Source of the DNA: a bacterium
GTDB taxonomy: Bacteria > UBA8248
Direction of reading: 5' to 3'
NCBI GenBank assembly: GCA_022828125.1
Contig: JAJEJD010000019.1
Location: forward strand, 78,875 to 142,874
Length of the DNA: 64,000 nt
The position numbers and the translations under genes were made by a program. Below are positions 6,331-60,853 of this stretch, in pieces; within the stretch, counting starts at the first letter, position 1, and every line of letters starts with the position of its first letter. The notes below the pieces were generated by a model that saw only the letters and a list, made by a program, of their open reading frames with translations, did no database searches and was not told the DNA's origin.

Positions 6331-6402
6331 TGGCGAAAGTGTTCCATCCTTAAGGCTAGTTTATAATTTCGCAACTCTCGCGAGTTTGGGCTCACCATCT
6401 TT

Positions 6403-7461: not shown

Positions 7462-8196
7462 TCACCCCCCCAACCGCTTATACGCCTCCGTCCCTCTTAA
7501 CGGCGAGTCGGGCTTCACGCCCTCTTTGGGGGTCCTGCCTTCGGAATCTTTCGCGGCGGGGTCGGCGCCGGCGTCGAGCAGGGCATCGACCACCGCGAGG
7601 ATGACGCCGTCTTTCGCCGCCGCGTAGTGGAGGGGAGTTCGCACGCGCTTGTCGCGCACGTCGGGGTTGGCGCCCGCCGCGAGCAGGGCCTTCACGATGG
7701 CGGGGGCCGAACTGCGCATCCCCGCCCAGTGCAGCGGCGCCAGGCCCTTCCTGTCCGGCGTGTTCACCCGGGCGCCCGCACGCACGAGGATCTCCACGAC
7801 GTCCGAGGCTTCGCCGAACGCCGCCGCCGCGTGCAGGGCCGTCCATCCGAATATGCCCTCCGCGTTCGGGTCGGCGCCGGCGTCCAGCAGGGTCGTCACG
7901 ATCCCGGGAGCCGCGTTGAACGCCACCGCCGTGTGGAGGGGCGTCGCTCCTCTCTCATCCGGCGCGTTCGGGTCGGCCCCGGCCCGCGTCAAGGCGGTCA
8001 GCACCGCCGAATTATCGGCGAAGCATGCCGCCCAGTGGAGCGGCGTCCATCCTTTGTTGTCCCGCGCGTTCACCTCGGCCCCGGCGTCCAGCAGGCCCTC
8101 CACGATTTCGGGGGCGCCCTCGTCCATCACCGCACGGTGCAAGGCCGTGGCGCCGTCTTCACCCCGTGCGTTCGGGCCGCTTGCTTCCGTAGACAT
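7462..8196 (-). CDS. Ankyrin-repeat protein
   Basis: At least six ANK repeats (GxTPLHxAA...LLxAGAxxN). Start taken at MSTEASG. Confidence 0.85.
   Translation of the reverse strand: MSTEASGPNARGEDGATALHRAVMDEGAPEIVEGLLDAGAEVNARDNKGWTPLHWAACFADNSAVLTALTRAGADPNAPDERGATPLHTAVAFNAAPGIVTTLLDAGADPNAEGIFGWTALHAAAAFGEASDVVEILVRAGARVNTPDRKGLAPLHWAGMRSSAPAIVKALLAAGANPDVRDKRVRTPLHYAAAKDGVILAVVDALLDAGADPAAKDSEGRTPKEGVKPDSPLRGTEAYKRLGG

Positions 8197-12197: not shown

Positions 12198-13285
<1,088 letters not shown>

Positions 13286-13289
<4 letters not shown>

Positions 13290-14591: not shown

Positions 14592-14608
<17 letters not shown>
13286..14608 (-). CDS. pyrC: Dihydroorotase (multifunctional-complex type)
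   Basis: 440 aa. [13 protein letters not shown] metal-binding motifs. Confidence 0.9.
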
Positions 14609-15611
<1,003 letters not shown>

Positions 15612-15651
15612 ATGTTCCCCCCCTTTTTCACGCCCGGCCCCCCGGGCATGT

Positions 15652-16176
15652 CTATCGCTTGTAAACGGCGTCCTGGCCGTCGGTCTCCTCCAGATGCACC
15701 CGCACCTCCTCGGGATGGACCGCCTCAATGTTCTTCCCGACGAAATCGGCGCGGATGGGCAGTTCCCGCCCGCCCCTGTCCACCAGGATGGCGAGCCGCA
15801 CCCTGCGGGGCCGGCCGAAGCCCATGAGCGCGGCCAGGGCGGCGCGCGCCGTGCGGCCCGTGTAGAGCACGTCGTCGACGAGAACCACGTCTTTCCCCTC
15901 GCAGGAGAAGGGCAGGTCCGTCTTCTTGAGGCCGGTCCTCACGCCTCCGCCCTGGTTGAGGTCGTCGCGGTAGAGCGTCACGTCGAGCGCGCCCACGAGC
16001 GGATGCACGCCCACCAGCGACTGGAGCTCCCGGGCCAGCCTCTCCGCGAGCGGCGCGCCCCTCGTGCGAACCCCGATGAACACGAGATCCGACAGATCGG
16101 CCGTTCGCTCGATAATCTCATGCGAGAGGCGCCTCAGGGTGCGCCTCAGCTGCTCGGCGTCGAGTTGTTTAACCAT
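15652..16176 (-). CDS. pyrR: Bifunctional pyr operon regulator / uracil phosphoribosyltransferase PyrR
   Basis: Start at [18 protein letters not shown]-binding [13 protein letters not shown]. Confidence 0.9.
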
Positions 16177-16412
16177 GACCGGCGTCCGGCGTATGCGCGT
16201 AAGCGGGGCGCAAAAAAAACTCCATACCCAAAGGGCATGGAGTGCCGGGAACAGGCGAGAAAATGGCAAGCATTCGCGCTTCCTCCTTCGCCGCCTCACG
16301 GGACGACATTAAAGGGGAATCTCTCAATCATCAGGCTGTTTTCACCCGGCGAAGAACCTGCCGGGCCATTTCCCGAAAACTAGCAGTCTTTCCGAGAAAG
16401 AGCAAGAGGGAA

Positions 16413-16727
16413 TCAGGAACGCTTCAAAAAATCGAGCGGCGCGCCCGAGCGTTCCTCCTCTTCACCGGGGACATGGGCGGATTCTTCCAGAATCTCGAAC
16501 AGGGCGGAGGCGTCTTTTTTCGACAGATTGCGCCTCGCCTCCCCCAGGACGCGGACCCGCAGGGTCCTGTTCTCGAGCCTGAGGCGCAGCACGTCTCCGA
16601 CTTCCACCCGGGAGGAGGCCTTGGCCGTTTTCCCCTCGATATCCACCGCACCCCCGTCCGCCAGGCTCTTGGCCAGGGGACGGCGCTTGACCAGACGGCT
16701 ATAGCGCAAAAACTGGTCGAGGCGCAT
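16413..16727 (-). CDS. S4-domain RNA-binding protein (Hsp15/YbcJ-like)
   Basis: 104 aa. MRLDQFLRYSRLVKRRPLAK is an S4 motif. Confidence 0.7.
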   Translation of the reverse strand: MRLDQFLRYSRLVKRRPLAKSLADGGAVDIEGKTAKASSRVEVGDVLRLRLENRTLRVRVLGEARRNLSKKDASALFEILEESAHVPGEEEERSGAPLDFLKRS

Positions 16728-16736
16728 CTTACGTCA

Positions 16737-18260
16737 TCATTGGGTGATTTCTTTCGGATCCGCCACGATGCTGCGCGTCTTCTGAACTTCCACCTCGAAC
16801 TCGAGCCGCGCGGCCTTGTTGTTCGTCTCGAAGGACATCGTTCTCGACCCGGCTTTTCCTCCTTCGCCCTTCGACCGTTCCGAGAACGCCTTGATCATGT
16901 CCGCGAAATTCACTTCGCCGATGTAGGAGTCGGGCAGCAGGTACACGTAACGGAACAAATAGACGTTCGCCGAAGGGTCGGGGTTCACGAAAAGCCTGTG
17001 CCCGGCCTCCAGGGCGTTGATGGCGTCTTTCCCCACGCTCGCGCCCTCGCCCACCTTCACCCTGCCCGATTTCCAGCGGGGCTTGTCCCTGTTCGCGCCG
17101 TAGGCCCACAAAATCCTGTCCTGCCCGAACAACCTGCCGCCGCTTTGCTTGAGCTTGACGCCGACCAGCCTGAAGCTGATCTGTTCGCGAACGTCCCGGA
17201 ACACGGAAGACAAGCCGTCGGCGGAGGGAGCGGGGTCGTAGCTGATTTCGAGAAAAGCGGCTCTTTTGAGATCCGTTATCCATTCGCGGCGTCTCTTGGT
17301 GAATTTCTCCTGGAAGAGTTTGCTGCGGATTTTGCCGGACACCCTGTCGAGGGTAATCACCTTCCCCGGCGCCACGTCATCGACGTGGACGACGTGAAAG
17401 CCCACCCTCGTCCTCGTCGGCTTGCTCGTCCCGCCCTTCGCCGTCGAGAAAATGAGTTGTTCGAGTTCGGGGAATACCTCGCCCTTCTTCACGGAGCCCA
17501 GCGATCCGCCCCGGCTCCCGGCGGGGCCTTCGGAATGCTTCTCCGCCACTTCCGCGAAATCAGCACCCGGCTTCGCGGCTTCCGCGTAAGCGAGGTCCGC
17601 CTTTTTGCGCTGCGCCTCGATTTCCGAGGCGGAGGCGCCCTTGCTTACGGGAAAGAAAATCTGCCGCACCGTCCGCTTCTCGGCCTCGCGGTAGTCATCG
17701 GAGTGCGCGTCGTAGTAATCCGCAATTTCCTGCTCCATCACCGAAACGCGCCCGCCGACTTCCATCCTCTCCACTTTTCGCGCCAGCAGCTTCTTGCGAA
17801 GCTCGTCGCGATATTGCTCCATCGTCATTCCCTGCGAATCCAAAAAGGCGCGCAGCCCGGCCGTCGTCGTCTTGTTCTGGCGAAGTATGTCCACGACCGC
17901 GTTTTCAATTTCTTTTTCACTGACGTTCAACTCGAGAGCCGAGGCGCGCTTCGCGATGAGCTTGCTCTGGATCATGGCGTCGAGGGCCGCGAGCTCCAGT
18001 TCGCGAATCCGCCGGCTCAATTGTTCGCCCCTGTAACTCTTCCTCAACTTCTCGGCGTCCGGTTTCACCAAATCCTGAAGCTCCGAGAGCATGATGATGT
18101 CATCGTCTATCTTCGCAATGATTCTCTCGATCGTCACGGCGGCGGAGGTCGCCGGGGCGGGCGCGCCCGCCAGGACGCAAAACGCAATCGCCAAAACGCA
18201 AAAACATCTAGCCCGATACGACATTTTCAAGATTTTCCGGATAGTATGTGATCTTCGCAT
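16737..18260 (-). CDS. SurA-like periplasmic chaperone / parvulin PPIase with about 160-aa C-terminal extension of unknown function
   Basis: Signal peptide, SurA N-domain, one PpiC parvulin domain (GFHVVHV), then an unassigned extension. Confidence 0.7.
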   Translation of the reverse strand: MRRSHTIRKILKMSYRARCFCVLAIAFCVLAGAPAPATSAAVTIERIIAKIDDDIIMLSELQDLVKPDAEKLRKSYRGEQLSRRIRELELAALDAMIQSKLIAKRASALELNVSEKEIENAVVDILRQNKTTTAGLRAFLDSQGMTMEQYRDELRKKLLARKVERMEVGGRVSVMEQEIADYYDAHSDDYREAEKRTVRQIFFPVSKGASASEIEAQRKKADLAYAEAAKPGADFAEVAEKHSEGPAGSRGGSLGSVKKGEVFPELEQLIFSTAKGGTSKPTRTRVGFHVVHVDDVAPGKVITLDRVSGKIRSKLFQEKFTKRRREWITDLKRAAFLEISYDPAPSADGLSSVFRDVREQISFRLVGVKLKQSGGRLFGQDRILWAYGANRDKPRWKSGRVKVGEGASVGKDAINALEAGHRLFVNPDPSANVYLFRYVYLLPDSYIGEVNFADMIKAFSERSKGEGGKAGSRTMSFETNNKAARLEFEVEVQKTRSIVADPKEITQ

Positions 18261-45461: not shown

Positions 45462-46316
45462 TTAATACTCATCCGTCCAGCTTCTGCGGCGCTTCTCGCC
45501 GGCGTCACACGGCGGGACCGCCCTCGACACCAGGACAGGGCCTTCCTCCGTGATTCCCGGATCATGCGCCTGTTGCCGCCTCTCCCTCCCCGGCAGGCCG
45601 ACAATCTCCAGAATCAGTTTCCTCCTGATGGCGCGACCGAAAGACTTGAAGTCATTCGCGACCACCAGGAAAGAGCGCCGGCCCCCGATGACGCATTTCC
45701 TGTAATACAGATCCAGGTTCGGCATCGGCATTCTGCCCCAGGGACTCGGCCGGTTATTCACGATGGGAAGCCCGTTTATCGTCACGCCGGCCCGTACGGC
45801 CCTGTCCCGGGCATTCGTCACGTAGTCCCCGCTGTTGTTCGGCCCGTCGCCGGAAATGTCGATGGTGCGGCGCTCGCTCGAGAACCCGTTGTTCTCGAAC
45901 AGCGGCAGCGCGAACTCTATCGCGCCGCTTATCGACGTGTAGGGACCCACCCCCACCGGCGCCTGGGAGAGCAGGTAAGCGAACTCCTCGGCGCTCGCGC
46001 CGTCGTGAATCCGCTTCCAGCCCACGACGATCCTCTGAAAATCGAAGCCCGCCCACTCCATGTAGGTGACCGCAATGCTTTTGTGTCTTCCCGATTGGAT
46101 GGCGCGCAAGACAGACGGCGAGCGAAAGGCGTTCACGTACCCCATCCGCTGGAGTTTCCCCTCCTCCTCATCCACGCTCCCTGAGACATCGACCGCCAGG
46201 ACGAGTTCCAGATCCACGCTGACGGGAGCGGGCCACGCGAAACCCGCATGCAGGGAGAGCGCGAAAATGGTCAGGAAACCCGCCAGGCCGCACCGCACTC
46301 TCGAATAGCGCATCAT
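45462..46316 (-). CDS. DUF1194-family (VWA-like) secreted protein
   Basis: Start at MMRYSRV with signal peptide. LVLAVDVSGSVDEEE...ISGDGPNNSG...GVTINGLPI. 4-nt overlap with the TPR gene. Confidence 0.6.
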   Translation of the reverse strand: MMRYSRVRCGLAGFLTIFALSLHAGFAWPAPVSVDLELVLAVDVSGSVDEEEGKLQRMGYVNAFRSPSVLRAIQSGRHKSIAVTYMEWAGFDFQRIVVGWKRIHDGASAEEFAYLLSQAPVGVGPYTSISGAIEFALPLFENNGFSSERRTIDISGDGPNNSGDYVTNARDRAVRAGVTINGLPIVNNRPSPWGRMPMPNLDLYYRKCVIGGRRSFLVVANDFKSFGRAIRRKLILEIVGLPGRERRQQAHDPGITEEGPVLVSRAVPPCDAGEKRRRSWTDEY

Positions 46317-47329
46317 TTCTCTTTCAACACGCCGGCCGCGGATTCCAGTTCCAGGCGAATCTGCTCCATCAGGGAGGAATACATGTGTTTTTCGGTGAGC
46401 AATTCCCTGGTTTCCTCCTCCACGTCTTCCTGCTTCCCCAAGGCGTAATCGCAGCGAATCACGCGCCATTTGGAAAATTCGCGGTACAGGCCCGAAATCC
46501 CGTCTTTCGACTCTTTCAGCCGGGACAGCAGTTTCGCATATTCCGTCCGCGCGCGCGGGTAATCCTCGGCGATGAAAAAACTCTCCGCGTATGCAACGTC
46601 GTACAAGGCGTTCTTGGGATAGCGCGCGCGCAGGTACTCGACGTCCCCTCTCGCCTCCTTGAATTTCTTTGCCCTGTAGAGCGCCCAGATGAGGTCCAGC
46701 CGCGCCGTAATGGATATCCAGCCGCCTCCATCGACCGCGCGGCGCAGATAGGCTCTGCCCTTAGCGCTCGTATCGCCGACGAAAAACCGGAACATCCTCA
46801 CCCAGCTCTCGGTGCTGCCCCTGATGTGATAAATCCCCAGCCCGTAGTAGGCGTCGTGAATTTCCGGGTCGAGTTCGAGCGCCTTTTCGAGATGGTTCTG
46901 CATCGCGCCGGCCCGCAGGAACGCCGTGAGATAGCTGCTGCTGTCGAGCGCATCGACGATGCGCATGCCCTCCGTCAGACCGGCGAGGAGGAGCGCTCTC
47001 GTGTCTTCGGGGTTTTTCTCCAGCAATGCCTCGGAGAGGGCCATCGCCTTCTCGGCGTTCTTCCGCCAGGTCTCCTGATAATCCTCCCGCCGGATATGCC
47101 CTTTCAGGATGTGGAAAACGGACGCCTTGAAGAAATATCCCTCGGGACGCCCGGGCGCGGACGCTATCACCCGGTCGAACGAATGAGACGCCGCTGAATA
47201 ATCGCCCGCGGCGACCCGTTCGAGCCCTGCGTCAATCGATTTCACGTCCAAAGACGCGCCATGAGCGAGGTTCGCCGAAGCCGGGAAAACGACGATAAAA
47301 ATGAGTATTCTCGCGAAATGGGACGCCAT
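46313..47329 (-). CDS. Secreted TPR-repeat protein
   Basis: Signal peptide. Several TPR-like helix pairs. Confidence 0.6.
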   Translation of the reverse strand: MASHFARILIFIVVFPASANLAHGASLDVKSIDAGLERVAAGDYSAASHSFDRVIASAPGRPEGYFFKASVFHILKGHIRREDYQETWRKNAEKAMALSEALLEKNPEDTRALLLAGLTEGMRIVDALDSSSYLTAFLRAGAMQNHLEKALELDPEIHDAYYGLGIYHIRGSTESWVRMFRFFVGDTSAKGRAYLRRAVDGGGWISITARLDLIWALYRAKKFKEARGDVEYLRARYPKNALYDVAYAESFFIAEDYPRARTEYAKLLSRLKESKDGISGLYREFSKWRVIRCDYALGKQEDVEEETRELLTEKHMYSSLMEQIRLELESAAGVLKEK

Positions 47330-47466
47330 TGCTCCTCCGGTCATCAACGCGCGGGCAACCGGCCCTGAAACGGGCGGGCATCTGCGCGAACGACGGTTTG
47401 CCCGCGCTCGTGATTGGGCATATCGTAGTATCGGGGTACGGGTATTTCAACCATAGCGAGCCGGCC

Positions 47467-48795
47467 ATGCTGAACATAAAACCTCCCGAAGCGGCGATTC
47501 GGATCATCCGGGCACTTGAGGCCTCGGGCCACCGGGCGCTCCTGGCGGGCGGATGCGTGCGCGACGCCCTGCTCGGCTCCCCCCCGAAGGACTGGGACAT
47601 CGCCACCGACGCGGCGCCCGAAGCCGTGCAGGGCCTCTTCGAGAAGACCGTCGCGGTGGGAGCGCAGTTCGGCGTGGTGCTCGTTCGGGCGGGCGGCCAG
47701 GAGTTCGAGGTGGCCCGGTTCCGCGAAGACGGCCCCTACGGCGACGGGAGACACCCCGACTCGGTTCGCCCTTCGGATGAGAAAGGCGACGCGAACCGGC
47801 GCGATTTCACCATCAACGGGATGTTTTACGACGTATCGAACGATCAACTCCTCGATTACGTGGGCGGCCGGCGCGACCTGGGCGAGGGGATCATCCGGGC
47901 CATCGGCGAGCCGGCTCTCAGGTTCCGCGAAGATCATCTGCGCATGATGCGGGCGATCCGCTTCTCGGCGAGGTTCGGCTTCGCGATCGAGGCGGCGACC
48001 GCCGCCGCCATCGAAGCGGGTGCCGGGCTCATCGGGAAAATCAGCCCCGAGAGAATACGCGACGAACTGACGATAATCCTGACCCAGGCGAATTCCGATA
48101 CCGCTTTCGCCGCCCTCGATTCCTCGGGCCTCCTCGAACACGTCCTGCCCGAGGTCGCCGCCATGCGCGGGGTGGCCCAGCCGCCTGAATTTCACCCCGA
48201 GGGCGACGTGTGGACGCACGTGCTGGCCATGCTGCGCATCAAGAAACGCTCCGCCTCGCCGACGCTCGCCTGGGGCATACTGCTCCACGACGTCGGGAAA
48301 CCGGCGACTTTTACCGAGACGGACAGAATCCGCTTCAACGGGCACGACAAGGCCGGTGCGGCGATGAGCGAAGAGGTCTGCGGGAGGCTCCGCATGCCCA
48401 AAACGCAGGGGTCGAGAATCCGCGATCTGGTCGCCAACCACATGCGCTTCATGCACGTCGAGAAAATGCGCGAGAGCCGCCTCAAGCGCTTCCTGCGCGA
48501 GCCGTATTTCGAGGAGTTGCTCGAACTCCACCGCGTCGACTGCCTCGCGAGCCACGGGAACCTGAGGACCCATGAATTCTGCGCGCGGAAACTCGGGGAA
48601 ATTCACGAGGAGGCCCTGCGCCCGCCGCGCCTGCTGGGCGGCCACGAACTCATGGCGATGGGCTACCCGGCGGGGCCCGGGCTGGGGGAAATCCTCCTGG
48701 CGGTCGAGGATGCGCAGCTCGAAGGCCGCATCTCCACCGGGGAGGAGGCCCGGGAGTTCGCCCGGCGGCATTTTCCGCCTCCGGAGGGTTGTTGA
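47467..48795 (+). CDS. cca: CCA-adding tRNA nucleotidyltransferase with HD domain
   Basis: Start at MLNIKPPEAAIRII. Pol-beta NTase GGCVRD...DWDIAT, RDFTINGM, HD motif HDVGK. Confidence 0.85.
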   Translation: MLNIKPPEAAIRIIRALEASGHRALLAGGCVRDALLGSPPKDWDIATDAAPEAVQGLFEKTVAVGAQFGVVLVRAGGQEFEVARFREDGPYGDGRHPDSVRPSDEKGDANRRDFTINGMFYDVSNDQLLDYVGGRRDLGEGIIRAIGEPALRFREDHLRMMRAIRFSARFGFAIEAATAAAIEAGAGLIGKISPERIRDELTIILTQANSDTAFAALDSSGLLEHVLPEVAAMRGVAQPPEFHPEGDVWTHVLAMLRIKKRSASPTLAWGILLHDVGKPATFTETDRIRFNGHDKAGAAMSEEVCGRLRMPKTQGSRIRDLVANHMRFMHVEKMRESRLKRFLREPYFEELLELHRVDCLASHGNLRTHEFCARKLGEIHEEALRPPRLLGGHELMAMGYPAGPGLGEILLAVEDAQLEGRISTGEEAREFARRHFPPPEGC

Positions 48796-48823
48796 AATAG
48801 CCCGCCGCTGCGGGATTGTGGTT

Positions 48824-49012
48824 GCGCGCACGCTTTTGAAGTTCACTCCCCCCTTGAGGGGGAGTCGAGGAAGCCGAGCGGTTTGTGCGAAGGCTGACTC
48901 GGTGGGGGGTGAAATGCGTTTTATCGCCATCCGAATTATACCCCCCACCGGCGCGACTTCTGGCTTCGCCCTCGTCTTGCCGACTCCCCCTCAAGGGGGG
49001 AGTTGATTTCCT
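48824..49012. mobile_element. MITE-like palindromic element, family B (termini CACTCCCCCCTTGAGGGGGAGTC ... GACTCCCCCTCAAGGGGGGAGTG)
   Basis: Long imperfect palindrome. Same family at 50501-50654, 56528-56700, 56863-57080, 58608-58762 and flanking the DUF559 gene at 60358-60853. Confidence 0.7.
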
Positions 49013-49654: not shown

Positions 49655-49860
49655 AAATGCGGGCAAATGCGGGGTTGCGGAAAACGCTTTATTTTCCGGA
49701 ATTTCTTAATGTATTACTTTAGATACTTCCTGCAACGGGATGATTATATTTCCTGATTCCACGAATCCGCTTTTCGGTAATTTATCGAAAAACCCCGTGA
49801 ATTTACCGGAATTTATCGATATTTACCGTATTTTACGGGAAATATCATTACTTTCATTTC
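49655..49860 (+). repeat. AT-rich ~200-bp noncoding element, copy 2
   Basis: CAAATGCGGGCAAATGCGGGG then TTAATGTATTACTTTAGATACTTCCTGCAAC ... GGAATTTATCGATATTTACCGTATTTTACGGGAAAT. Collinear with copy 1. Confidence 0.55.
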
Positions 49861-50500
49861 CGCCTCGCTCCCGCATCCATGCGCGCCGCCCCCGGCGGGA
49901 AAAAGCCCTGTGGAGGGGTTGCCGGAGAAACTTCGTGATGGTTCTGTAGCAGGACAACCCAAAAGGGTTGTCCTGCCCTCCGTGGTTGTCCTTCGTCAGG
50001 ACAGGCACAGAGGCCACGGACAGGCGCAGGGGCCTGTCCGCTACGGGGTCGGTGGCCAAAACGATGAGCGATAGCGCGTTCACCGCCTCCACCCTCGCCC
50101 GTTCGCCCGGTTCCATCAGAAAGCCTCCTCTCCCCGGGGTTGTTGAAAAAGTCCATCGAGGAGGAAGTGACGCCTGCGCCTCCGCCCGGTTTCGGGTTTT
50201 GGCCGTCATTCCCTCACCTCTCGGCGGGGGGGAGGACACACAGTCAGACATATATGTCTGACCCCTACGGAACCATCGCGTCTTGACCCGTAGGGGCGGA
50301 CCTAAGTGTCCGCCCGCTCTCGAAACAGGGTTTCTCAACAACCCCTCCCCGGGGCGGTCGCTCCCGGTTGATCGAGCAGGGATCGCCGTTTCCCCGCTTC
50401 GCGCGCACGATAGCCGGGTACGCGATTTCACGGAGTACGGCAAATGCGGGGAAATGCGCGGCGCGCGAAGATCGCTCCCCACCGAGGAGAATTTCAAATC

Positions 50501-50654
50501 CACTCCCCCCTTGAGGGGGAGTCACAGAGGCCGAGCGGTTTGTGCGAAGGCCGATGTGGTGGGGGGACATGCCACAGAAAAACTCCCCCCACCGGTTCGG
50601 TTTCGGGCAAAATCCCCCTCACCTCACCGACTCCCCCTCAAGGGGGGAGTGAAT
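50501..50654. mobile_element. MITE family B copy
   Basis: Termini as in 48824-49012. Confidence 0.7.
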
Positions 50655-51069
50655 ATGAACCTCGTCTGAGGTAAAAACCCCGTCCCGCCGACGTTTGACG
50701 ACGCGCGGAACACCTTTTTATACTGAACGTCCACGAGAGTTTCAGGAGACCCTGATTTTTCACCCATGACAAGACCCGCACGTATGCGTGGGGCGATCCC
50801 GAGGAGGGATCGCCACCTGCAACAGCATCCCGACCGACCCGCAAGGATTTTTTCAACAGCCCCCTCAAGGGGGGAGTTGATCTTTTTTGCGGGGTGTTGC
50901 CTTTTCATACCCCCCTGTCAAGGGGGGGTAGGGGGGTTGCCTTTCGCGGCGCCTGGACGCTTGACGAGGCGCGACCCCTCTTTTCATCGGGATTCAATAC
51001 GATACCCGACAAGAGGAATGAGGGAGGGAACTGAAAATGTGCGGAGAACTCACCAGGGGAAAAGGCGCC

Positions 51070-51489
51070 ATGCGGATAAAGCGGTTCGCCATTGCCATGT
51101 TCTTGATGTTTCTGGCAGCGGGGTGTCAGGACGATGCGGATATCGCATCGTATAATCTGTCGAAGTCGGCGGACAATTTCGAGATCGACCGGAGAATCGT
51201 GTTCTACAACGGGATTACGGATACTTATATGTTGACAATCGAGGGGCGGTGCTCGATTGAGGATCAGGAGAACCAGCTTGAAGTTACATGCAAGCTGGGG
51301 AGCGACAGTTTCAAGAAACATTTTTTGGGGTTGAGCGATAATGTGACGTATTTTGCGGAGCAACTGGACACGGCGGACGTGAGCGTATTCCATCACCGGA
51401 TCACGTTCAAGCCTCGGCAGATTGTTCCGGATGTTGATTTAAGAAATAGTCCGGGAGAAATGATTCAGGATCGCCCGGAGAATAAATAG
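51070..51489 (+). CDS. Lipoprotein of unknown function
   Basis: MRIKRFAIAMFLMFLAAGCQ lipobox. Host-like codon usage, but sits in the repeat zone. Confidence 0.5.
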   Translation: MRIKRFAIAMFLMFLAAGCQDDADIASYNLSKSADNFEIDRRIVFYNGITDTYMLTIEGRCSIEDQENQLEVTCKLGSDSFKKHFLGLSDNVTYFAEQLDTADVSVFHHRITFKPRQIVPDVDLRNSPGEMIQDRPENK

Positions 51490-51535
51490 CGAAGCGGCGA
51501 GCGGGCGCGTTCGGCGCGCCCTCCCTCGCCTGAAA

Positions 51536-51738
51536 ACCAACCCCCCCTACCCCCCCGTGACAGGGGGGTATAAAAAGGCGACGCCCACCGCCGGACGCTC
51601 GCCACCGATAGAGGGGCTTTTGTTTTTTCTTACCTCCCTGATAAGGGGGGGATATAAAAAGGCGATGCGCTCCCACCGGGCTGAGGGGGGTTTGCTCTTT
51701 CTTACCCCCCTGTCAAGGGGGGGTAGGGGGGGTTGGTT
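51536..51738. mobile_element. Array of two to three MITE family A units
   Basis: Repeated CCCCCCTACCCCCCC-TGACAGGGGGG-TATAAAAAGGCGA units. Confidence 0.7.
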
Positions 51739-52077
51739 TTTCTCGGGGCAAGAGGGGTTCGTGCGGAAACACGCAAAAGAGGCGGCCCCCTTCACGGGAC
51801 CGCCTCCTTGAATCCATCCGTCCGGGCTTGCCAAACGCGCCCGAACCGCGTATTAAGTCAGCTGGGGGTTACTCATTATTCCCGTCCCAAACCGAGAGGA
51901 CTCAAACTCTGTAGCATGGGCCGGTACAATTTGCTCCCGACGATGTAGAGCAACCAATGAGTAACCCCCAAAGGTCACGCGTCCCTTCCCGGCAACCTGC
52001 CCTTTCCTGTTTCTGACTCGCTTATCAGGCCCGCCCCGGCCCCGGGTCAGGCCAGGAGCCAAAGGCGTCTTTCTTCG

Positions 52078-53718
52078 TTACCTGTTCGCCGCGAACGACC
52101 CGATCAAAGCCGCGCTTCCCGCCGGATTGCTCTGCTGCGTGGCGTAGAAGGTCCCCGCCACCGAACCGGGAGCCTCGGCCGAATACGTCGTCGTTACCGT
52201 TCTTTGCGGATCATTCGTATCAATCGTTTCCGTTTTCGTGGATCTTCTGTTTCTTATTCCGAAGAACTGGCCCTTCCAGTCGCCGCTGAAGGATTTGCCG
52301 TCGACCACGCCGACGGCTTCGCCCCCGAAAGCGGCTTCAATGGTAGTTCCAATTCCAAATTTAGGCTCCTGTAACTCGATGCTCCCCGCGATGGATTTCC
52401 CGGCAGCGACGATGTTGGTGACTGCACCCTCGATGCTTCCCGAACCCGTCCCGGCTGCGTTCTGGAACTCGGCAGTGAGCGTAACGTCCGCCTCGAAGTA
52501 GCTCATATTGCCGTCCGCGAGGTAGGCGCCGTTCGCATCTCCCCGGTAGGTCGCCGTCATATCCTTGTCTTCCGCGACGAAATCGGTAATTTGGTTTAAA
52601 GTTCCTGTATCACCGCAAACTCTGGTAACACCTGTGCCACCTGCCGGGTCACTTACATTTTCAATACCGGTACAGAAGTTCTGAGTGGTAGTGGGGATCG
52701 GTTGGCTCCCGTACGCGAACGCCTCTATCGCATTACTCTGGACCCAGATGCCCGCGAGCAGGTAGTCCGTGTCGGCCACGTCTGCCGTTGTATACCGCTC
52801 GTCGTCGGGCGTTCCCGTATCGTCTGCCAGCGTAGCCGTTCTCATTCTGACGTCGGCCCTCGTTTTCGTAATGTCCGTGTAGGCGTTAACGAGAATGGAG
52901 TTGTCGGCGTTTTTCAGATCGAAGCCGTTAGGAAGGCGGCCCGTTCCGCTGAGTTTCGGCGTCTTGCTGTTCGATGAAAGGGTATTTACCGTAACCCCGC
53001 GCTCACCAACGACTCTGTCCGCGCCGGTCCCGGTATCTTTGGGGTATGTAGCTACATTTCCTCCAGTAGCCTCACCTATAGTCAAGGGATCCGTATTAGT
53101 GTTCACCAGGTCTGCCAGAATCGCGTCATAAATGATCTTGTTCTCTCTCACGTGCTGGATAAGCCCGGAGCCGTTCGTCGCGAGTTCCTCGTCCCTTTGC
53201 TGTTGTTCGCGAAGGTTCGCCACCGCATTCACGGCGCTCAGGAGAGACGCCAATGATTGTTGGGCGCTTATCAGGTCGTTCAGCGCCGCTTGTGCGTCCA
53301 ACACCGCGCCTTCCGCCTGCGCTCCCGTGGTGGCCACGTTCGCCACGGCGCTCGCGGTTACGATGTCCGTCAGCGCGTTCCGCGCGGCGTCGCCGAGGGA
53401 GCCTGCGCTTGTAATCTGCGCCTCCGTGGCGTCGTCGTGGCCCTGCACGGCCGAAGCGTCCGAGCGCGCCAATCCCTCACGCGTCCGGGCGTCGGCGATG
53501 ATCCCCGCGAGCGTATCCAGCGCCGCTTCGATTCTTTCCTCATCCGTCGGCGGCGGATCCGTGCAGTTCGGGTACGTTCCGACCTGACCCTGCGGGCATT
53601 CCATCACCGGCGGCATCTCTTCCGCAGTACCGCCGCCACCGCCACCGCCGCAACCGGAGGCAAATGCCGCAATGCACACGACAAGTACCGCCAATCTAAA
53701 AAGCTTGAGCATTTCCAT
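52078..53718 (-). CDS. Surface lipoprotein with TbpB/fHbp-like C-terminal beta-barrel (paralog 1)
   Basis: Lipobox AAFASGCGGGGGGG. Ala-rich helical region. C-terminal GDWKGQFFG...AGTFYATQ...GSFAANR resembles TbpB-like lipoprotein C-lobe handle. Confidence 0.6.
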   Translation of the reverse strand: MEMLKLFRLAVLVVCIAAFASGCGGGGGGGTAEEMPPVMECPQGQVGTYPNCTDPPPTDEERIEAALDTLAGIIADARTREGLARSDASAVQGHDDATEAQITSAGSLGDAARNALTDIVTASAVANVATTGAQAEGAVLDAQAALNDLISAQQSLASLLSAVNAVANLREQQQRDEELATNGSGLIQHVRENKIIYDAILADLVNTNTDPLTIGEATGGNVATYPKDTGTGADRVVGERGVTVNTLSSNSKTPKLSGTGRLPNGFDLKNADNSILVNAYTDITKTRADVRMRTATLADDTGTPDDERYTTADVADTDYLLAGIWVQSNAIEAFAYGSQPIPTTTQNFCTGIENVSDPAGGTGVTRVCGDTGTLNQITDFVAEDKDMTATYRGDANGAYLADGNMSYFEADVTLTAEFQNAAGTGSGSIEGAVTNIVAAGKSIAGSIELQEPKFGIGTTIEAAFGGEAVGVVDGKSFSGDWKGQFFGIRNRRSTKTETIDTNDPQRTVTTTYSAEAPGSVAGTFYATQQSNPAGSAALIGSFAANR

Positions 53719-53738
53719 CAGTTGCCCCCTAAGGCTAC

Positions 53739-53765
53739 GCCCCCCTTCCAGGACGGAAGGGGGCG
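53739..53765 (-). terminator. Stem-loop (CCCCCCTTCC-AGGA-CGGAAGGGGG) downstream of the 53861-55588 lipoprotein gene
   Basis: Perfect 10-bp GC-rich stem about 100 nt after the stop. No clear U-tract. Confidence 0.4.
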
Positions 53766-53860
53766 GGCGGTTGAAACCAGCTTCCTGATTATCTTTTGCT
53801 TTGAGAAGCCCCGGCCCCGGGCGTCATGCCGACGCCCGAGACCTGAGGCGTGGTGCTCTG

Positions 53861-55588
53861 TTACTCAGCCTTCCACGAGCCGAACGAGCCAAGAATGCTC
53901 ACGGGCGTATTTCCGCCGCCCGTAGCGGCGAAGGTGCCGGCCGCTGTCGTGGGGTATTCGGTTCGAGCCGCCATGGAATCCGCGGCCTCTTCGTTCGGGC
54001 CGTAGAACTGGCCGCCCCACATGCCTTTCAGCAATTGGCCTCCCACGGTGCCCTCGGCGGCGCCATCGAAGCCGCCTGTGCTGTCGCCGTTCTCTGCGCC
54101 CGCGATGACGGGCGCCCTCTTGAGCTCCAGCATGCCGGCCACATCCATGCCGCCGGCCCTGATGCCTGAGACGCTTCCGGTTACGGCGCCTATGAGCAGT
54201 CCGTCATTTTCGTCGGCGTTGCCGGTTGCCGGAGTGGAATCAGCCCCGACGGTGCCGCCGAAGTTGGCCGTCAGGCTCACGTCCGCGTCAAAGTACTCGA
54301 CCATGCCGCCCGCCGAATACATGCCCGTCGCGACGCCGTTATACGTCGCCGTGCCCGTGAGTTCGGCCCTGACCTGGAACGCGTCGCTGCCGCTCGCGAA
54401 TGCGCCGGCAACGGCCAAGTCCGTGGCTTCCGTAGCGTCCGGAACCGTCAGCCAGACGCCCCAGGCCAGATAGTCGGCGTCGAGCACTGGAGACGTGCCG
54501 GAAGCGATGGGCTGGAACGTATAGCCCTGAAGCGCCACGATAGCGCCCTTGTCGTCGACGCTGATCGAGCAGGCGGTGCCTGCGACGCAGTTGAACCGCC
54601 CCGTCTCCGTCGGGATGTTGTCGGTAGCGGACACGTTACGCGTCCCCGTGAAGGTTTTGCCGTTCCCTGGAATATCGCCCGTGATGATATGGCCTACTGC
54701 CAAGGCGGTAGCGCTATCAGCTCCATAATTCTGCCTCATCATGGGCGCCTGGATGTCCGTGTAGACGTTGACGTAGGTGTCGGAAGCGGCATTCTCCAGC
54801 AACTCTCTGCCCATCCAGTCCCCACGGGTCGTCAGCAACGCCGGGGTTTCGCCTCTCTGCAACGCGGTGCCGACGCCGGCTACTGTGATTGTAGGTCCAT
54901 TCGCGCCGTGAGCCACCGTTGCGCTGGCGGCCGGGGGGCCTTGAGAAACGCTTCCGGCTTCAACACCGGGACCATCAGTTACAGCGGTTTGTTCGGCGGC
55001 TTCACCGGCCACCGTTGCCAACTCCGTGCCGACTCTCGTCGCGTTGGAAACGGCTTTGGGCGCTTCCCGACCCTCGAGTACGGCATTGTCGATGGCCGCC
55101 TGGTTGGTGATCTTGTTCGCCAGCTTGGTCAGACCCAGGCCGCGCTCGCCGGCCGCTTCCATCGCCTTGTCGCGGGCCGCTTCGGCCGCCATCTGGTGCT
55201 CCATGGCCATTGCGGAAGTCGCCGCCGCCTGCGCAGCCGTGTTGGCTTCAGCTGCCATCGCCGCGTACGAGTGCGCGTTGCTGGCCGCCACGGGGTCTTT
55301 CGCGCCGTATACGGCCATCATCGCCGCCGAAGCCGCCGCCGCGGCCGCGTCCTGCGCGCCGCTCAGGGCCATCTCTTCGGCAAGATCCGCAGCGGAGGTG
55401 CAGGAACCGTCCGCGTTATACCGGCCACCGTCACCCTCGCACATTTCCTGCGCGGAAGGTGGTTCCGGCATCGGCATCGGTTCCTCTTCAACGGCAGCCG
55501 TTCCGCCGCCGCCGCAGCCGGCCAGCGTCAGCGCGAAGGCCGCCGCCAGCATGAATGAAAAGATTTTGTTGCCAGTGAGTTTCATCAC
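53861..55588 (-). CDS. Surface lipoprotein with TbpB/fHbp-like C-terminal beta-barrel (paralog 2)
   Basis: Lipobox LTLAGCGGGG. Shares with paralog 1 a Cys-x(n)-Cys loop just after the lipobox, YF(E/D)ADV(T/S)LTA(E/N)F, DYL(L/A)xG(I/V)W and the C-terminal G(Q/M)WxGQF(F/Y)G...GTF(Y/A)AT...GSF motifs. Confidence 0.6.
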   Translation of the reverse strand: MMKLTGNKIFSFMLAAAFALTLAGCGGGGTAAVEEEPMPMPEPPSAQEMCEGDGGRYNADGSCTSAADLAEEMALSGAQDAAAAAASAAMMAVYGAKDPVAASNAHSYAAMAAEANTAAQAAATSAMAMEHQMAAEAARDKAMEAAGERGLGLTKLANKITNQAAIDNAVLEGREAPKAVSNATRVGTELATVAGEAAEQTAVTDGPGVEAGSVSQGPPAASATVAHGANGPTITVAGVGTALQRGETPALLTTRGDWMGRELLENAASDTYVNVYTDIQAPMMRQNYGADSATALAVGHIITGDIPGNGKTFTGTRNVSATDNIPTETGRFNCVAGTACSISVDDKGAIVALQGYTFQPIASGTSPVLDADYLAWGVWLTVPDATEATDLAVAGAFASGSDAFQVRAELTGTATYNGVATGMYSAGGMVEYFDADVSLTANFGGTVGADSTPATGNADENDGLLIGAVTGSVSGIRAGGMDVAGMLELKRAPVIAGAENGDSTGGFDGAAEGTVGGQLLKGMWGGQFYGPNEEAADSMAARTEYPTTAAGTFAATGGGNTPVSILGSFGSWKAE

Positions 55589-55796
55589 TTTTGAGTCCTC
55601 CTAGTCTCGTGATATTAAAGAGCTTTGCAACCAACAAAACTTTGAAGTGTTCGGATTCGACCTCCTTTCTTTGACTTTCCGATATTTCATTTCATTCCGT
55701 TATCGGGCTTCTATCGTTTCATCGAATCATCAACCGGGGCCGGAGCGCGCGGCCGCCGGCCCGGACTCACGCGCCCGGGCCGGTGACCGGCTTATC

Positions 55797-56142
55797 CACG
55801 AGACTGGTGTGGGATTCTTGGCGTTCTTCATGATGGTTAGAGTCCTCCAGCCCCGCGATAAAAAACTTCCTGGCCCCTGGCCGAATTTTTCGTTTCAGGC
55901 TCCTGCCGGGCCTTTCCTTGAATCGATCACGAGTCTGGAGAGGGATTTGTGGCGTGGTTCATCATGAGTTGAGTCCTCTAGCCTCGTGATATTTCGTCTT
56001 CCGGCTCTCGCCGGGCTTGCCGTTCCCGCCTGAGCGCCGCCGAGTGCACGGGCCGCCGGGCTTTCCGGTTCACGAGACTGGAGGGGGATTGGTGGCGTGG
56101 TTCGCCGTGGGTTGAGTCCTCTGGCCTCGTGATGTTTGCTGC
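55797..56142 (-). repeat. Three tandem ~140-bp repeat units, each reproducing the 5' leader/RBS/start-codon region of the downstream lipoprotein gene (bounded by TCACGAG...CTCGTGA inverted ends)
   Basis: Units at 55797-55859, 55928-55990 and 56083-56142 match the genuine leader at 55590-55620 (ATCACGAGACTAGGAGGACTCAAAAGTGATG on the coding strand). Two units carry mini-ORFs (MMNHATNPSPDS, MKNAKNPTPVSW...). Confidence 0.6.
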
Positions 56143-56527
56143 AAGCGCCCGGCTAGTTACTGGGTCGTCGTCTTCCGGGCCGTCAAGTTACTTGAGCGAA
56201 CAATCTACACCCCGGGGTTCCCGCTCTCTCCGTCTTTCGGGAGAAATCCGCGTTGCATGGAGCGGGCGGCCCTGAGGGCGACTACTCACGTCTATTGCTT
56301 GACATATATGATAGTGCGGCAAGCTTTCCGCTTTTGTCAACCCTTTATTTCAACTTGCGCGCAACTTGCATTCCGTTCCGGGCGGTTCGGGTATGGTTCG
56401 ATTATGAACCATCGGGGATCGGGGGTCAAACGGGATTGGGGAGGGAGCGTTTGACCCGATTGAGGAATGAGGGTTTGACGGGATTGGGGAGGGGCTGTTG
56501 AAAAAGTCCCGTGGAGCGATTTGGGCT

Positions 56528-56700
56528 GAGCGCACGCTTTTGAAGTTCACTCCCCCCTTGAGGGGGAGTCACAGAGGCCGAGCGGTTTGTGCGAAGGCTG
56601 AATCGGTGGGGGGACATGCCACAGAAAAGCTCCCCCCACCGAGTCAGCCTTCACCTGTCGGTTCGGCTTCCTCGACTCCCCCTCAAGGGGGGAGTGAATT
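56528..56700. mobile_element. MITE family B copy (with conserved left flank GCGCACGCTTTTGAAGTT)
   Basis: Same termini and flank as 48824-49012. Confidence 0.7.
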
Positions 56701-56793
56701 TCTTCTCTACTCTGTCGACAACTTCCCGCAAGGCGTTGTTGAAAAAGGCCACATTTCAGGGGTAGAGGAGAAGCCCCTCTCGCCTGGAAAAGC

Positions 56794-56845
56794 AACCCCC
56801 CCTACCCCCCCTTGTCAGGGGGGTATAAAAAGGCGATGCCCACCG
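56794..56845. mobile_element. Solo end of MITE family A
   Basis: AACCCCCCCTACCCCCCCTTGTCAGGGGGGTATAAAAAGGCGATGCC. Confidence 0.6.
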
Positions 56846-56862
56846 ATGAGAGAGAAGAGAAT

Positions 56863-57080
56863 CACTCCCCCCTTGAGGGTTATTACCAAAGAAACAAGAA
56901 GGGAATTCACTCCCCCCTTGAGGGGGAGTCGAAGAGCTGAGGGCGTAAGCCCGAAAGCGATTCGGTGGGGGGAGTTTTTTTGTGGCATGTCCCCCCACCG
57001 ATTCAGCCTTCGCACAAACCGCTCGGCTTCATCGTCTGGCTTTCCCCTCGGGAAGCCAGACCCTCAAGGGGGGAGTTGAT
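56863..57080. mobile_element. Composite/nested MITE family B copy (duplicated left terminus)
   Basis: Two CACTCCCCCCTTGAGGG left ends 45 nt apart, then the perfectly palindromic core GCCGAGCGGTTTGTGCGAAGGC. Confidence 0.65.
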
Positions 57081-57139
57081 TTTCTCTCTCGTCGGTCGGT
57101 TACATGCGACAAATCCAGAGTTCCGGGGTTTTTCAACAA

Positions 57140-57302
57140 CCCCCTTGTCAGGGATAAAGGCCCCCCCCCTACCCCCCTTGACAGGGGGGCATGAAAAAGC
57201 AAAACCCTGGCCCGGTGGTGGGCGTCGCCTTTTTTCATATCCCCCACATGCCGGGGCGTCGGCCTTTTTTACCCCCCTGTCAAGGGGGGGTAGGGGGGGT
57301 TG
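57140..57302. mobile_element. Full-length MITE family A copy
   Basis: Both TIRs present. Internal palindrome GCAAAACCCTGGCCCGG...CCGGGGCGTCGGCC. Confidence 0.7.
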
Positions 57303-57563
57303 ATTTCATCAATCACGTTTCCCGTAGGAGCGGGGTGCCCGCCCGTTGTTGATATACGACCCTGGGACGCAGGACAGGCACGGAGGCCTGTCCCTACGGG
57401 ATCGAACCCGATTGATGCGGGAGGGATTCGTCGTAAAAACCCCCTACCCCCCTTCCCGCCGTTGTTGTAAGATGTCCCTCTCGGCCCGGGGGCGGCGCGG
57501 GTCTTGTAACCGCATTTGTATGCCACCGCATCCCGAGGCCGGGGGTTTTCGGGAGAATCCGAC

Positions 57564-60357: not shown

Positions 60358-60853
60358 CACTCCCCCCTTGAGGGGGAGTCGAAGAGGCCGAGCCATTGGG
60401 CGAAGGCCGATTCGGTGGGGGGTAAAACGAGATGGGTGAAAGCGGACGTCAATACAATCCCCGGCATTTGGGAAACGCCCGCGCCCTCCGCCGTGATCAC
60501 ACCGACGCTGAAGGGTTGCTGTGGAGTCGCCTGCGCGACAAACAGATCGATGGCCACAAATTCCGCCGCCAGCAACCGATAGGTCCGTATATCGCGGATT
60601 TCGCGTGCATGACGGAAAAACTGCTGATCGAACTCGACGGCGGAGGCCATGCGGAGCAAAAAGCAAAGGACCGCCGGCGCGAAGAATATCTGCGGCGCAG
60701 TGGTTATCGCGTGCTGCGTTTCTGGAATACGGAGGTCTTTGAGAATCTTTCCGGTGTTCTGGAAAGAGTGCGAGAAGCGCTAGCAGACCCCCCCACCGAT
60801 TCAGCCTTCGCATAAATCGCTCGGCTTCATCGACTCCCCCTCAAGGGGGGAGT
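60358..60853 (+). mobile_element. Full-length family B element carrying a DUF559 endonuclease gene (putative autonomous progenitor of the family B MITEs)
   Basis: Left end CACTCCCCCCTTGAGGGGGAGTCGAAGAGGCCGAGC...GGTGGGGGG and right end CCCCCCACCGATTCAGCCTTCGCA...GACTCCCCCTCAAGGGGGGAGTG are the same arms that abut directly in the MITE copies. Confidence 0.65.
60432..60815 (+). CDS. DUF559 (Vsr/Mrr-like PD-(D/E)xK) endonuclease-domain protein
   Basis: 127 aa. ...AEGLLWSRLRDKQIDGHKFRRQQPIGPYIADFACMTEKLLIELDGGGHAEQKAKDRRREEYLRRSGYRVLRFWNTEV is the canonical DUF559 pattern. Confidence 0.8.
   Translation: MGESGRQYNPRHLGNARALRRDHTDAEGLLWSRLRDKQIDGHKFRRQQPIGPYIADFACMTEKLLIELDGGGHAEQKAKDRRREEYLRRSGYRVLRFWNTEVFENLSGVLERVREALADPPTDSAFA

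Follow-up and report, generated by a model that had tools for sequence, protein, structure and literature searches.

The locus studied here raises the question of what its two adjacent lipoprotein genes, B and A, encode. In the original prediction they were read as tandem paralogous surface lipoproteins of the TbpB/fHbp type, lying in a MITE zone of an environmental-type genome; Slam (type-11 secretion, T11SS) and its handle-and-barrel cargo are known from the literature as a trait of Proteobacteria, studied mainly in animal pathogens. As developed below, B and A are probably a co-transcribed pair of outer-membrane lipoproteins of the Slam/type-11-secretion cargo class. The window (the whole 64-kb stretch of DNA analysed) contains both open reading frames at the predicted coordinates, with these coding features:

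~55596-55601, (-) strand: Shine-Dalgarno AGGAGG of B
53861-55588, (-) strand: gene B, lipoprotein of 575 aa
55514-55588, (-) strand: B signal peptide and lipobox (MMKLTGNKIFSFMLAAAFALTLAG followed by C), read from the sequence; LAGC in 96 of 105 family members
54359-54997, (-) strand: B handle (beta domain in the middle of the protein), with the highest variability in B and the invariant C334/C340
53864-54358, (-) strand: C-terminal 8-stranded barrel of B, TbpB_B_D-like, strands E413-426 to E563-573, aligned by hhalign with the A barrel
52078-53718, (-) strand: gene A, lipoprotein of 546 aa

Gene callers place the start of B at the second Met, giving 574 aa. In residues, B consists of a signal peptide with lipobox LAGC (1-25), a Gly/Pro linker, a Cys50-Cys63 loop, a three-helix bundle (~66-197), a beta handle (~198-410) and the 8-stranded barrel (~411-575); A consists of a signal peptide with lipobox ASGC (1-23), a Gly run, a Cys41-Cys52 loop, a three-helix bundle (~57-208), a beta handle (~209-382) and a barrel with one extra hairpin (~383-546). 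The lipobox cysteines follow AAFASG in A and LTLAG in B, with a Gly run after each, and a lipobox-like motif is kept in 93 of 103 A-family and 99 of 105 B-family members, so that the predicted lipoprotein signals and Gly runs are borne out (lipoboxes FASGC in A and LAGC in B). The same holds for the predicted post-lipobox Cys loop, widely kept in both families (C41/C52 in 81 of 103 A-family members, C50/C63 in 94-96 of 105 B-family members), and for the Ala-rich helices, which AF2 models place at residues 59-205 of A and 46-194 of B. The C-terminal motif series anticipated from the sequence is likewise present in both families, the motifs common to them being DxDYLxxGxW, TATYxG, YFxADVxLxAxF, GxWxGQFFG, AGTF and GxFGxxR/K. 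A second Cys pair absent from the original prediction, C349/C368 in A and C334/C340 in B, is invariant; in A it brackets the most variable loop of the handle. The AF2 models show one eight-stranded barrel domain per protein, a beta-sheet handle or pedestal before it, and a helical N-terminal half.

The likeness of A to B is far above chance, as judged by BLASTP (E 3e-14) and profile-profile comparison with hhalign (E 3.8e-37). Sequence paralogy is limited to A 315-546 and B 369-575, approximately the last 230 residues, and profile-profile comparison detects no sequence likeness between the N-terminal halves; the description of the two genes as tandem paralogs thus stands for the C-terminal module but not for the N-terminal halves. 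Variability within the families peaks in the handle loops, and the barrel is among the best conserved regions: mean entropy is 1.68 bits in the B handle compared with 1.09-1.14 bits in bundle and barrel, and among paralogs of one genome DNA identity in the B handle drops to 0.12-0.45.

Direct searches place neither protein in a known family. Neither A nor B has a Pfam match at E <= 1, the NCBIfam scan likewise gave no family, and searches of PDB sequences, with either protein singly or the family profile as query, returned nothing relevant; a weak match to LptM merely reflects the signal peptide and was set aside. The only Pfam family matched directly by more than one A/B member is PF01298, to which two of 21 family barrels match weakly (E 0.057). 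A profile search with the barrel extends to 1,208 cluster representatives, and among 57 distant ones nine match PF01298 TbpB_B_D (best 9.2e-12) and four match PF08794 FHBP_C (2.6e-6). Because no direct Pfam threshold is reached and no PDB entry matches, membership of the Slam-cargo class rests on fold and transitive homology; together with the Slam gene found beside homologs (below), the handle-plus-barrel fold and the transitive PF01298 and PF08794 matches support the TbpB/fHbp-type interpretation. The opposing reading, that the likeness is the convergent or trivial one of any generic small beta barrel and that the ORFs are ordinary hypothetical lipoproteins outside the TbpB/fHbp class, is very improbable and already largely refuted: in fold comparison Slam cargo rank above generic barrels, with 160-199 residues aligned and the handle included; intermediates carrying TbpB_B_D and FHBP_C are found by the family profile at E <= 1e-19; and a Slam gene adjoins homologs.

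With TbpB lobes, HpuA, fHbp, NHBA, PmSLP/fIbp and hemophilin (Hpl/HphA), among them surface proteins by which pathogens such as Neisseria bind transferrin, haem and factor H, A and B share a C-terminal 8-stranded barrel with a beta handle ahead of it; Slam cargo carry such a barrel domain in one or two copies, usually C-terminal (PMC5449769). Further likenesses to Slam/T11SS cargo are the lipoprotein signal of the lipidated members, a DUF560 translocator gene adjoining homologs, and a variable N-terminal 'effector' ahead of the conserved barrel. Nevertheless A and B are neither TbpB nor fHbp, being single-lobed, having a three-helix-bundle N-domain and lacking a recurrent TonB-dependent receptor neighbor. 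TbpB and LbpB have two lobes, each a handle plus barrel, and a partner receptor, whereas no gene of tbpA/lbpA type was found in the neighborhoods examined; fHbp, at ~27 kDa, combines an N-terminal beta domain with an FHBP_C barrel, a description that A and B do not fit. Hemophilin/HphA is soluble, with no lipobox, a haem-coordinating handle residue, and adjacent receptor and Slam genes; A and B match it in fold only, as they are predicted to be lipidated and have neither an invariant His in the beta domains nor an adjacent receptor gene. Known Slam cargo also differ in that A and B place a disulfide loop and a three-helix bundle of ~150 residues before the handle, always occur as a pair of two different proteins with many divergent copies per genome, have no direct Pfam match, and come from genomes that bear Nitrospirales, Nitrospinota or unclassified labels. 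The closest plan is that of predicted T11SS cargo with an alpha-helical N-terminal effector, a 'pedestal' and a C-terminal barrel (bioRxiv 10.1101/2024.09.26.615229), which share with A and B a variable N-domain, beta pedestal/handle and 8-stranded barrel. Those cargo were catalogued in Proteobacteria beside cluster-1 T11SS proteins, whereas the B-A cassette is mostly unlinked to Slam, paired, multi-copy, and equipped with conserved non-coding RNA parts of its own. The helical bundle resembles trypanosome receptors (factor H receptor/GARP, HpHbR, ISG65) and Borrelia BBH37 in shape only, with identity of 4-23% and large rmsd; long helical bundles recur by convergence, and no homology to these proteins is claimed.

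The order B then A is found in 30 of 30 related loci, and no other gene is conserved around all copies of the cassette in these loci. At least seven divergent cassettes occur in one genome (OZ242260.1), and the window organism's own scaffold carries a second one. The bearers are labelled Nitrospirales, Nitrospinota or unclassified (MAG labels), not Proteobacteria. The MAG names of the relatives resemble those of sponge-metagenome bins, a likeness that suggests a sponge habitat. Cassette hosts are thus probably non-proteobacterial and sponge-associated, and given these names the window genome is probably not 'environmental', as it had been described; a literature search returned nothing linking Slam/T11SS to sponge symbionts. 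In the flanking part of the window, the ORF at 47344-48948 (-) lies opposite a called PolyA_pol gene and has no Pfam match, and is therefore likely spurious.

The original prediction hinged on a Slam-like translocator being present. A 543-aa protein with PF04575 and TPR_Slam is encoded directly downstream of A in six cassettes from four 'Nitrospirales' MAGs. In the window, and in the 10 kb on either side of 27 window-lineage cassettes, an HMM search gave no Slam even at E <= 10. This answers the expectation in part, for the sister lineage. Further Slam and A/B proteins lie on contigs of equal size (426321, 11242, 38237, 89820 and 9529). A search for Slam homologs gave 1,629 matches, of which the best 120 are all at least 62% identical and on contigs of 2.2-2.7 Mb, and is uninformative for the 4-Mb window lineage. 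In the complete chromosomes OZ242260.1, OZ244799.1 and OZ253442.1, cassettes are unlinked to Slam. A TPR plus DUF1194 gene pair in the window (45462-47347) was considered as a split or cluster-3 T11SS locus, since DUF1194 co-occurs with marine T11SS proteins, and was rejected; its TPR protein is all-helical, has no DUF560/TPR_Slam match and bears no likeness to the Nitrospirales Slam.

The non-coding parts of the cassette and its surroundings are as follows:

55600-57500: upstream non-coding zone with three tandem 131-143-bp repeats (55796-56137) and REP-like palindromes
53719-53860, (-) strand: B-A spacer, 142 nt, with two conserved hairpins
~53813-53843, (-) strand: spacer hairpin 1, after the B stop
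~53738-53770, (-) strand: spacer hairpin 2, just upstream of the A Shine-Dalgarno
53725-53730, (-) strand: A Shine-Dalgarno AGGGGG
51861-51972, (-) strand: structured RNA element of ~110 nt within the 3' UTR of A, a three-way junction with a 15-17-bp closing stem
51775-51804, (-) strand: intrinsic-terminator-like hairpin GGCGGTCCC-GTGAA-GGGGGCCGCC then TCTTTT, read from the sequence
49800-51860: downstream non-coding zone with REP-like palindromes, enclosing a small lipoprotein gene
51037-51489, (+) strand: the small lipoprotein gene

Spacer DNA shares 79-95% identity with its counterparts in paralogous cassettes, where protein identity is only ~45-57%, and in the spacer alignment stems are kept and loops changed. 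The 110-nt element has a minimum free energy of -50.8 kcal/mol (z -3.0); nine of its 34 pairs have compensatory changes, and 99.3% of cells are paired compared with 36-57% when the partners are slid. A covariance model recovers one copy of it for every cassette of the 28 window-lineage loci, with sense scores of 99-130 bits versus 22-30 bits antisense, and in 658 kb scanned it occurs once per cassette plus a single orphan. Rfam 15 has no match on 51861-51972 at E <= 1, and no tRNA or tmRNA was found in the element; with its covariation, it is a candidate new RNA family. It resembles integron attC, REP and MITE sequences in its length of ~110 nt, its complementary ends and its 3' position in the cassette. 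It was nonetheless rejected as any of these because it pairs perfectly, is restricted to the cassettes rather than dispersed, and is asymmetric between strands, several G-U pairs rendering the fold strand-specific. Compared with attC as generally understood, pairing is essentially perfect, with no extrahelical bases, and the GTT/AAC boxes stand in reverse order to R''/R'. GC hairpins with T runs comparable to that at 51775-51804 follow the element in other copies; this hairpin is likely the end of the B-A transcript, a call that we infer from its sequence because the consensus scan did not list it. A sigma-70 promoter scan returned zero sites. The upstream zone is conserved only in four orthologous loci (L004, L013, L016 and L017). 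As for the 'MITE zone', palindromes do flank the cassette on both sides, but they are REP-like (e.g., CCCCCCTGTCAAGGGGGG) and occur also at 12049, 33159, 33261 and 58912. An Rfam Atu_L6 match in the REP zone, at 26.7 bits against a gathering score of 100, was treated as chance.

These features can be assembled into a mechanism in which A and B would leave the cytoplasm through Sec, receive lipid at the lipobox cysteine and be delivered to the outer membrane. There, a DUF560 (Slam) translocator would recognize the C-terminal TbpB-type 8-stranded barrel, which is thought to carry the Slam recognition signal (PMC5449769), and flip the protein to the cell surface. The present genome would carry the translocator gene at another locus, as in Neisseria, where the Slam-dependent TbpB and LbpB are not encoded beside Slam1 (PMC5449769). 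At the surface, the Gly/Pro linker and disulfide loop would tether the three-helix bundle and the handle-plus-barrel lobe, with the hypervariable handle loops as a putative ligand-binding or exposed face. Given the invariable pairing of their genes, B before A, joint action of the two proteins is probable, and the conserved inter-gene hairpins and cassette-specific 3' UTR element may shape their expression.

Whether the proteins are displayed in the window lineage is the point at which a different reading bears most directly. If the cassette spread on its own, leaving the translocator gene behind and so losing the Slam link, A and B might be periplasm-facing outer-membrane lipoproteins or use another export route; consistent with this, none of the 27 window-lineage cassettes has a Slam nearby, nor has the window, and the RNA element, not Slam, occupies the position after A. 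We consider this unlikely, however, as the barrel that putatively serves Slam recognition (PMC5449769) is among the best conserved regions, the bracketing of hypervariable loops by invariant cysteines suggests exposure, and Slam cargo unlinked to Slam are well documented (PMC5449769).

As to function, A and B could instead be nutrient-capture co-receptors or tethered hemophore-like proteins similar to TbpB, HpuA or HphA, which would bind a metal, haem or cofactor carrier and pass it on to a TonB-dependent receptor with its gene at another locus. Their fold is that of such proteins, but the chance that this is their role is small: no TonB-dependent receptor (TonB_dep_Rec/Plug) is present among the window genes scanned or in annotated neighborhoods, none is recurrent near cassettes among the best 25 of 64 families (44 large flanking ORFs), the beta domains contain no invariant His or other obvious haem ligand, and at least seven divergent copies per genome would be unusual for a single nutrient system. 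The divergent cassette repertoire is more in keeping with escape from recognition, or with a range of ligands from host or environment, than with classical TonB-coupled nutrient capture. A more far-reaching version, which we regard as a long shot, is that the cassettes form a contingency repertoire of paired Slam-displayed lipoproteins in sponge-associated bacteria of at least two phyla, serving in host or phage recognition or in hiding from it. The conserved blocks (signal-peptide regions, B-A spacer and 3' element) would then be recombination anchors between which hypervariable handle segments are swapped from copy to copy, and the choice of copies for expression would fall to the cassette-specific structured RNA. 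If true, the TbpB/fHbp fold would underlie a system resembling antigenic variation outside Proteobacteria.

For the preferred reading of B and A as a pair of Slam-class cargo lipoproteins, the significance lies in the occurrence of the cargo fold, and in a sister lineage of the translocator, in genomes labelled Nitrospirales, Nitrospinota or unclassified, and in a new organization: an obligate pair of different lipoproteins in many divergent copies with hypervariable handle loops. The 110-nt RNA offers a convenient marker for locating such cassettes. If the hosts are sponge symbionts, as the MAG names suggest, the cassettes would provide concrete surface molecules with which to test how hosts recognize or tolerate their symbionts, a question of long standing.

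Both minus-strand open reading frames of the original prediction were found exactly at the predicted positions, gene B upstream of gene A, and the B-then-A pair is here called the cassette.

53861-55588, minus strand: gene B, 575 aa from a GTG (574 aa from the next ATG, the start used by gene callers)
52078-53718, minus strand: gene A, 546 aa

Each gene is preceded by a Shine-Dalgarno sequence. The proposed signal peptides (B ending ...ALTLAG-C, A ending ...AAFASG-C) are typical of lipoproteins, and the glycine run and cysteine loop attributed to the two proteins are both present after the lipobox (Cys-x10/12-Cys). Of the 103 A-type and 105 B-type homologs aligned, 93 and 99, respectively, have a lipobox-like motif, and 79% and ~90% keep the loop cysteines; an invariant second Cys pair lies in the beta region (A C349/C368; B C334/C340). 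Full-length unnamed homologs number more than 190 for A and more than 190 for B.

Direct Pfam and NCBIfam scans of A and B gave no match, nor did PDB sequence searches with the single proteins or with a family profile. AlphaFold2 models built on family alignments were confident (A: pLDDT 90.0, pTM 0.77; B: pLDDT 89.9, pTM 0.82) and share one plan, in which a disordered linker leads through a small disulfide hairpin and a long bundle of helices (A ~57-208, B ~66-197) to a beta-rich handle and an eight-stranded C-terminal barrel, to which A adds one hairpin; the handle and barrel expected of TbpB/fHbp-like proteins were thus recovered in both. Structural alignments to cargo of the outer-membrane translocator Slam (Hpl 6om5, HphA 8gm3, HpuA 5ee4, and also the TbpB C-lobe 5kkx, fHbp 9mrj, NHBA 6cuj and PmSLP 9b3e) cover 160-199 residues, corresponding to handle plus barrel. 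Foldseek is consistent with this, returning TbpB and hemophilin at probability 0.97-1.00, and generic membrane barrels gave lower structural scores than Slam-cargo structures. A profile of the C-terminal module shared by A and B matches 1,208 cluster representatives at E <= 1e-3 (468 at E <= 1e-10), in varied architectures of about 100 to 2,461 aa with the module in up to four copies; nine of 57 more distant hits match Pfam TbpB_B_D (best 9.2e-12) and four match FHBP_C. Among the A/B barrels themselves the only family matched by more than one member is PF01298, weakly (E 0.057). At the level of sequence, remote homology of A and B to TbpB_B_D/FHBP_C can be shown via such intermediates. The description of A and B as tandem paralogs holds only for the final handle strands and the barrel, since only A 315-546 and B 369-575 align (BLASTP E 3e-14; hhalign E 3.8e-37); the N-terminal halves are separate families of the same architecture.

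A search for Slam (tblastn, and an HMM from 52 Slam sequences) found the translocator adjoining homologous cassettes in MAGs labelled 'Nitrospirales', but none in the 64-kb window, whose remaining genes are housekeeping, or within 10 kb of 27 window-lineage cassettes. In OY763007.1 (2.6-Mb chromosome, 'Nitrospirales bacterium') A is immediately followed by a gene for a 543-aa protein that matches TPR_Slam and PF04575 (SlipAM/DUF560), starts with a signal peptide and ends in ...RWIRQF. The order B-A-Slam recurs in six cassettes of four 'Nitrospirales' MAGs (loci L015, L019, L020/L037, L026, and L035 twice, inverted), with a remnant at L031; A and B of this lineage also carry lipoboxes, and contigs of equal length among the Slam and the A/B hits point to further putative cases of such linkage. 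Missing linkage is not equivalent to a missing Slam, because Neisseria TbpB and LbpB rely on unlinked Slam1 (PMC5449769).

The 'Nitrospirales' modules are surrounded by toxin-antitoxin, integrase and AlpA genes. OY763007.1 holds two 98%-identical Slam copies ~26 kb apart (L037 = OY763007.1 2089720-2111318) and L035 an inverted pair, with many toxin-antitoxin pairs (RelE, HicA, HigB, PemK), an rve_3 integrase and an AlpA gene around the duplicated modules; this duplication and embedding suggest that the modules may lie in a mobile or plastic island. Within the window, the gene for a secreted all-TPR protein (344 aa) immediately precedes that for a DUF1194 protein (PF06707, E 2.6e-73; 45462-47347, minus strand). 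According to a T11SS (type-11 secretion) preprint, DUF1194 genes are found together with DUF560 translocators of the marine 'cluster 3'; no DUF560 gene adjoins this pair, and the TPR protein was rejected as not Slam-like.

The best-supported reading is that A and B are paired outer-membrane lipoproteins belonging to the Slam/T11SS cargo class, presumably displayed on the cell surface; on the points tested they show the general features of that class. They lack the specific features that define TbpB, fHbp, HpuA or hemophilin, and identification with any of these was rejected. A classical TbpB/HpuA/HphA-type nutrient system would be less likely, because the beta domains of A and B have no invariant histidine and no TonB-dependent receptor, the partner in such a system, was found among the scanned window genes, in the annotated neighbourhoods or among the top 25 of 64 families from 44 large flanking ORFs.

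The pairing of the two cargo-class genes is strict: in all 30 related loci that extend far enough upstream, the A-type gene is preceded on the same strand by a B-type gene at a distance of 120-185 nt, and no other gene conserved around all copies was found among the related loci. The window locus is syntenic with L004, L013, L016 and L017, and its organism carries a second, divergent cassette ~125 kb off on the same scaffold; at least seven cassettes occur in OZ242260.1 (complete 4.48-Mb chromosome) and at least five in the OZ244799.1 chromosome. DNA identity among seven cassettes of one genome is a mosaic: it is 0.85-0.94 in the two signal-peptide regions and the spacer end, and falls to 0.62-0.78 across the helical bundles and to 0.12-0.45 in the handle regions, while the barrels, which contain two variable loops, have intermediate values. 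Protein entropy matches this mosaic, the most variable stretch of A being the loop between C349 and C368. Among the products of the 44 large flanking ORFs are housekeeping proteins, a TrwC relaxase, transposases of the IS66 and Mutator types and, no more than 10 kb from a cassette, a very large protein with ankyrin repeats (Ank E 9.6e-99; ORF set from L003-L034); ankyrin-rich proteins are typical of sponge symbionts. A DUF559/MTES_1575 endonuclease-like gene (60432-60815, plus strand) has a domain that recurs near another cassette (L036 14372-14761).

Two non-coding elements follow gene A.

51861-51972, minus strand: 3' element, ~110 nt, ~105 nt past the A stop codon
~51775-51804: terminator-like hairpin and T run, past the 3' element

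Since the terminator-like hairpin follows it, the 3' element probably sits in the 3' UTR of a B-A transcript. It folds into a three-way junction with a closing stem of 15-17 bp (-50.8 kcal/mol, z -3.0). Across 13 distinct copies, 9 of 34 predicted pairs show compensatory double changes, although most of these separate two sequence groups and independent events are thus few; 99.3% of cells are paired, versus 36-57% with partners slid, and the covariation score was reached by 0 of 500 shuffles. Several positions are G-U pairs, and covariance-model scores are 99-130 bits on the sense strand against 22-30 bits on the antisense strand, favouring an RNA element over a DNA one. In all 28 window-lineage loci the model has one hit per cassette (four copies are truncated at contig ends), with several of the hits in loci outside the model-building set; it has none in the Slam-linked 'Nitrospirales' loci. 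No Rfam family or tRNA matches the element. Across 658 kb only cassette copies and one orphan were found, the latter (84 bits, no adjoining A gene; L003 3741-3855 = L030 17122-17236) lying between two cassettes of OZ242260.1, and it may be a remnant of a lost cassette. In the B-A spacer, paralogous cassettes share 79-95% DNA identity, compared with only ~45-57% identity for their proteins. The spacer contains one conserved hairpin just past the stop codon of B and a second immediately ahead of the A Shine-Dalgarno sequence, both with stems kept and loops changed.

Non-coding DNA with many REP-like palindromes extends for ~2 kb on either side of the cassette. The term 'MITE zone' is therefore a fair description, but not one specific to the cassette, because these palindromes are also found between other genes of the window and in related genomes. 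The units are of two kinds, CCCCCCTGTCAAGGGGGG and CTCCCCCCTTGAGGGGGAG types, scattered in both orientations (50490-51740 and 56540-57310; also 12049, 33159, 33261 and 58912), and generate numerous spurious ORFs whose peptides recur, for example TPPLRGSHRGRAVCAKA. A 131-143-bp repeat is present in three tandem copies (55796-56137) 200-550 nt upstream of B; it is also multicopy upstream of B in the orthologous L004, L013, L016 and L017, is missing from this position at paralogous cassettes, and may have a promoter or regulatory function. The upstream zone also has a short array of 24-nt period (56411-56493; ATYGRGGA...GGG-rich), and the downstream repeat zone a lone gene for a 150-aa lipoprotein (51037-51489, plus strand; lipobox LAAGC) matching PF25682 Phage_VG64 (E 3.7e-53). 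Farther off, 4001-8000 has low GC (0.50-0.51 vs ~0.61 elsewhere), holds a Mrr_cat restriction endonuclease-like ORF (5410-6330, minus strand) and may be a foreign island; 12200-18260 has long overlapping ORFs on both strands, of which plus-strand 12249-13679, 13971-15827 and 16242-18251 gave no Pfam match.

The related genomes bear, in their record titles, the labels 'Nitrospirales bacterium', 'Nitrospinota bacterium' or 'bacterium', and bin names such as COS4_bin and RHO1_bin resemble those of coral-reef sponge MAG sets, so that the relatives are probably sponge-associated. Published work presents Slam/T11SS as a proteobacterial system, and no link to sponge symbionts was found in it. The A/B family is amplified into a repertoire whose variable handle loops would form the functional face; A and B would cooperate and would have a ligand. 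New with respect to the literature are the host lineages, the obligate pairing of B and A, the cassette copy number, the helical-bundle N-domains together with the disulfide loop, and the cassette-specific RNA parts, namely the B-A spacer hairpins and the 3' element.
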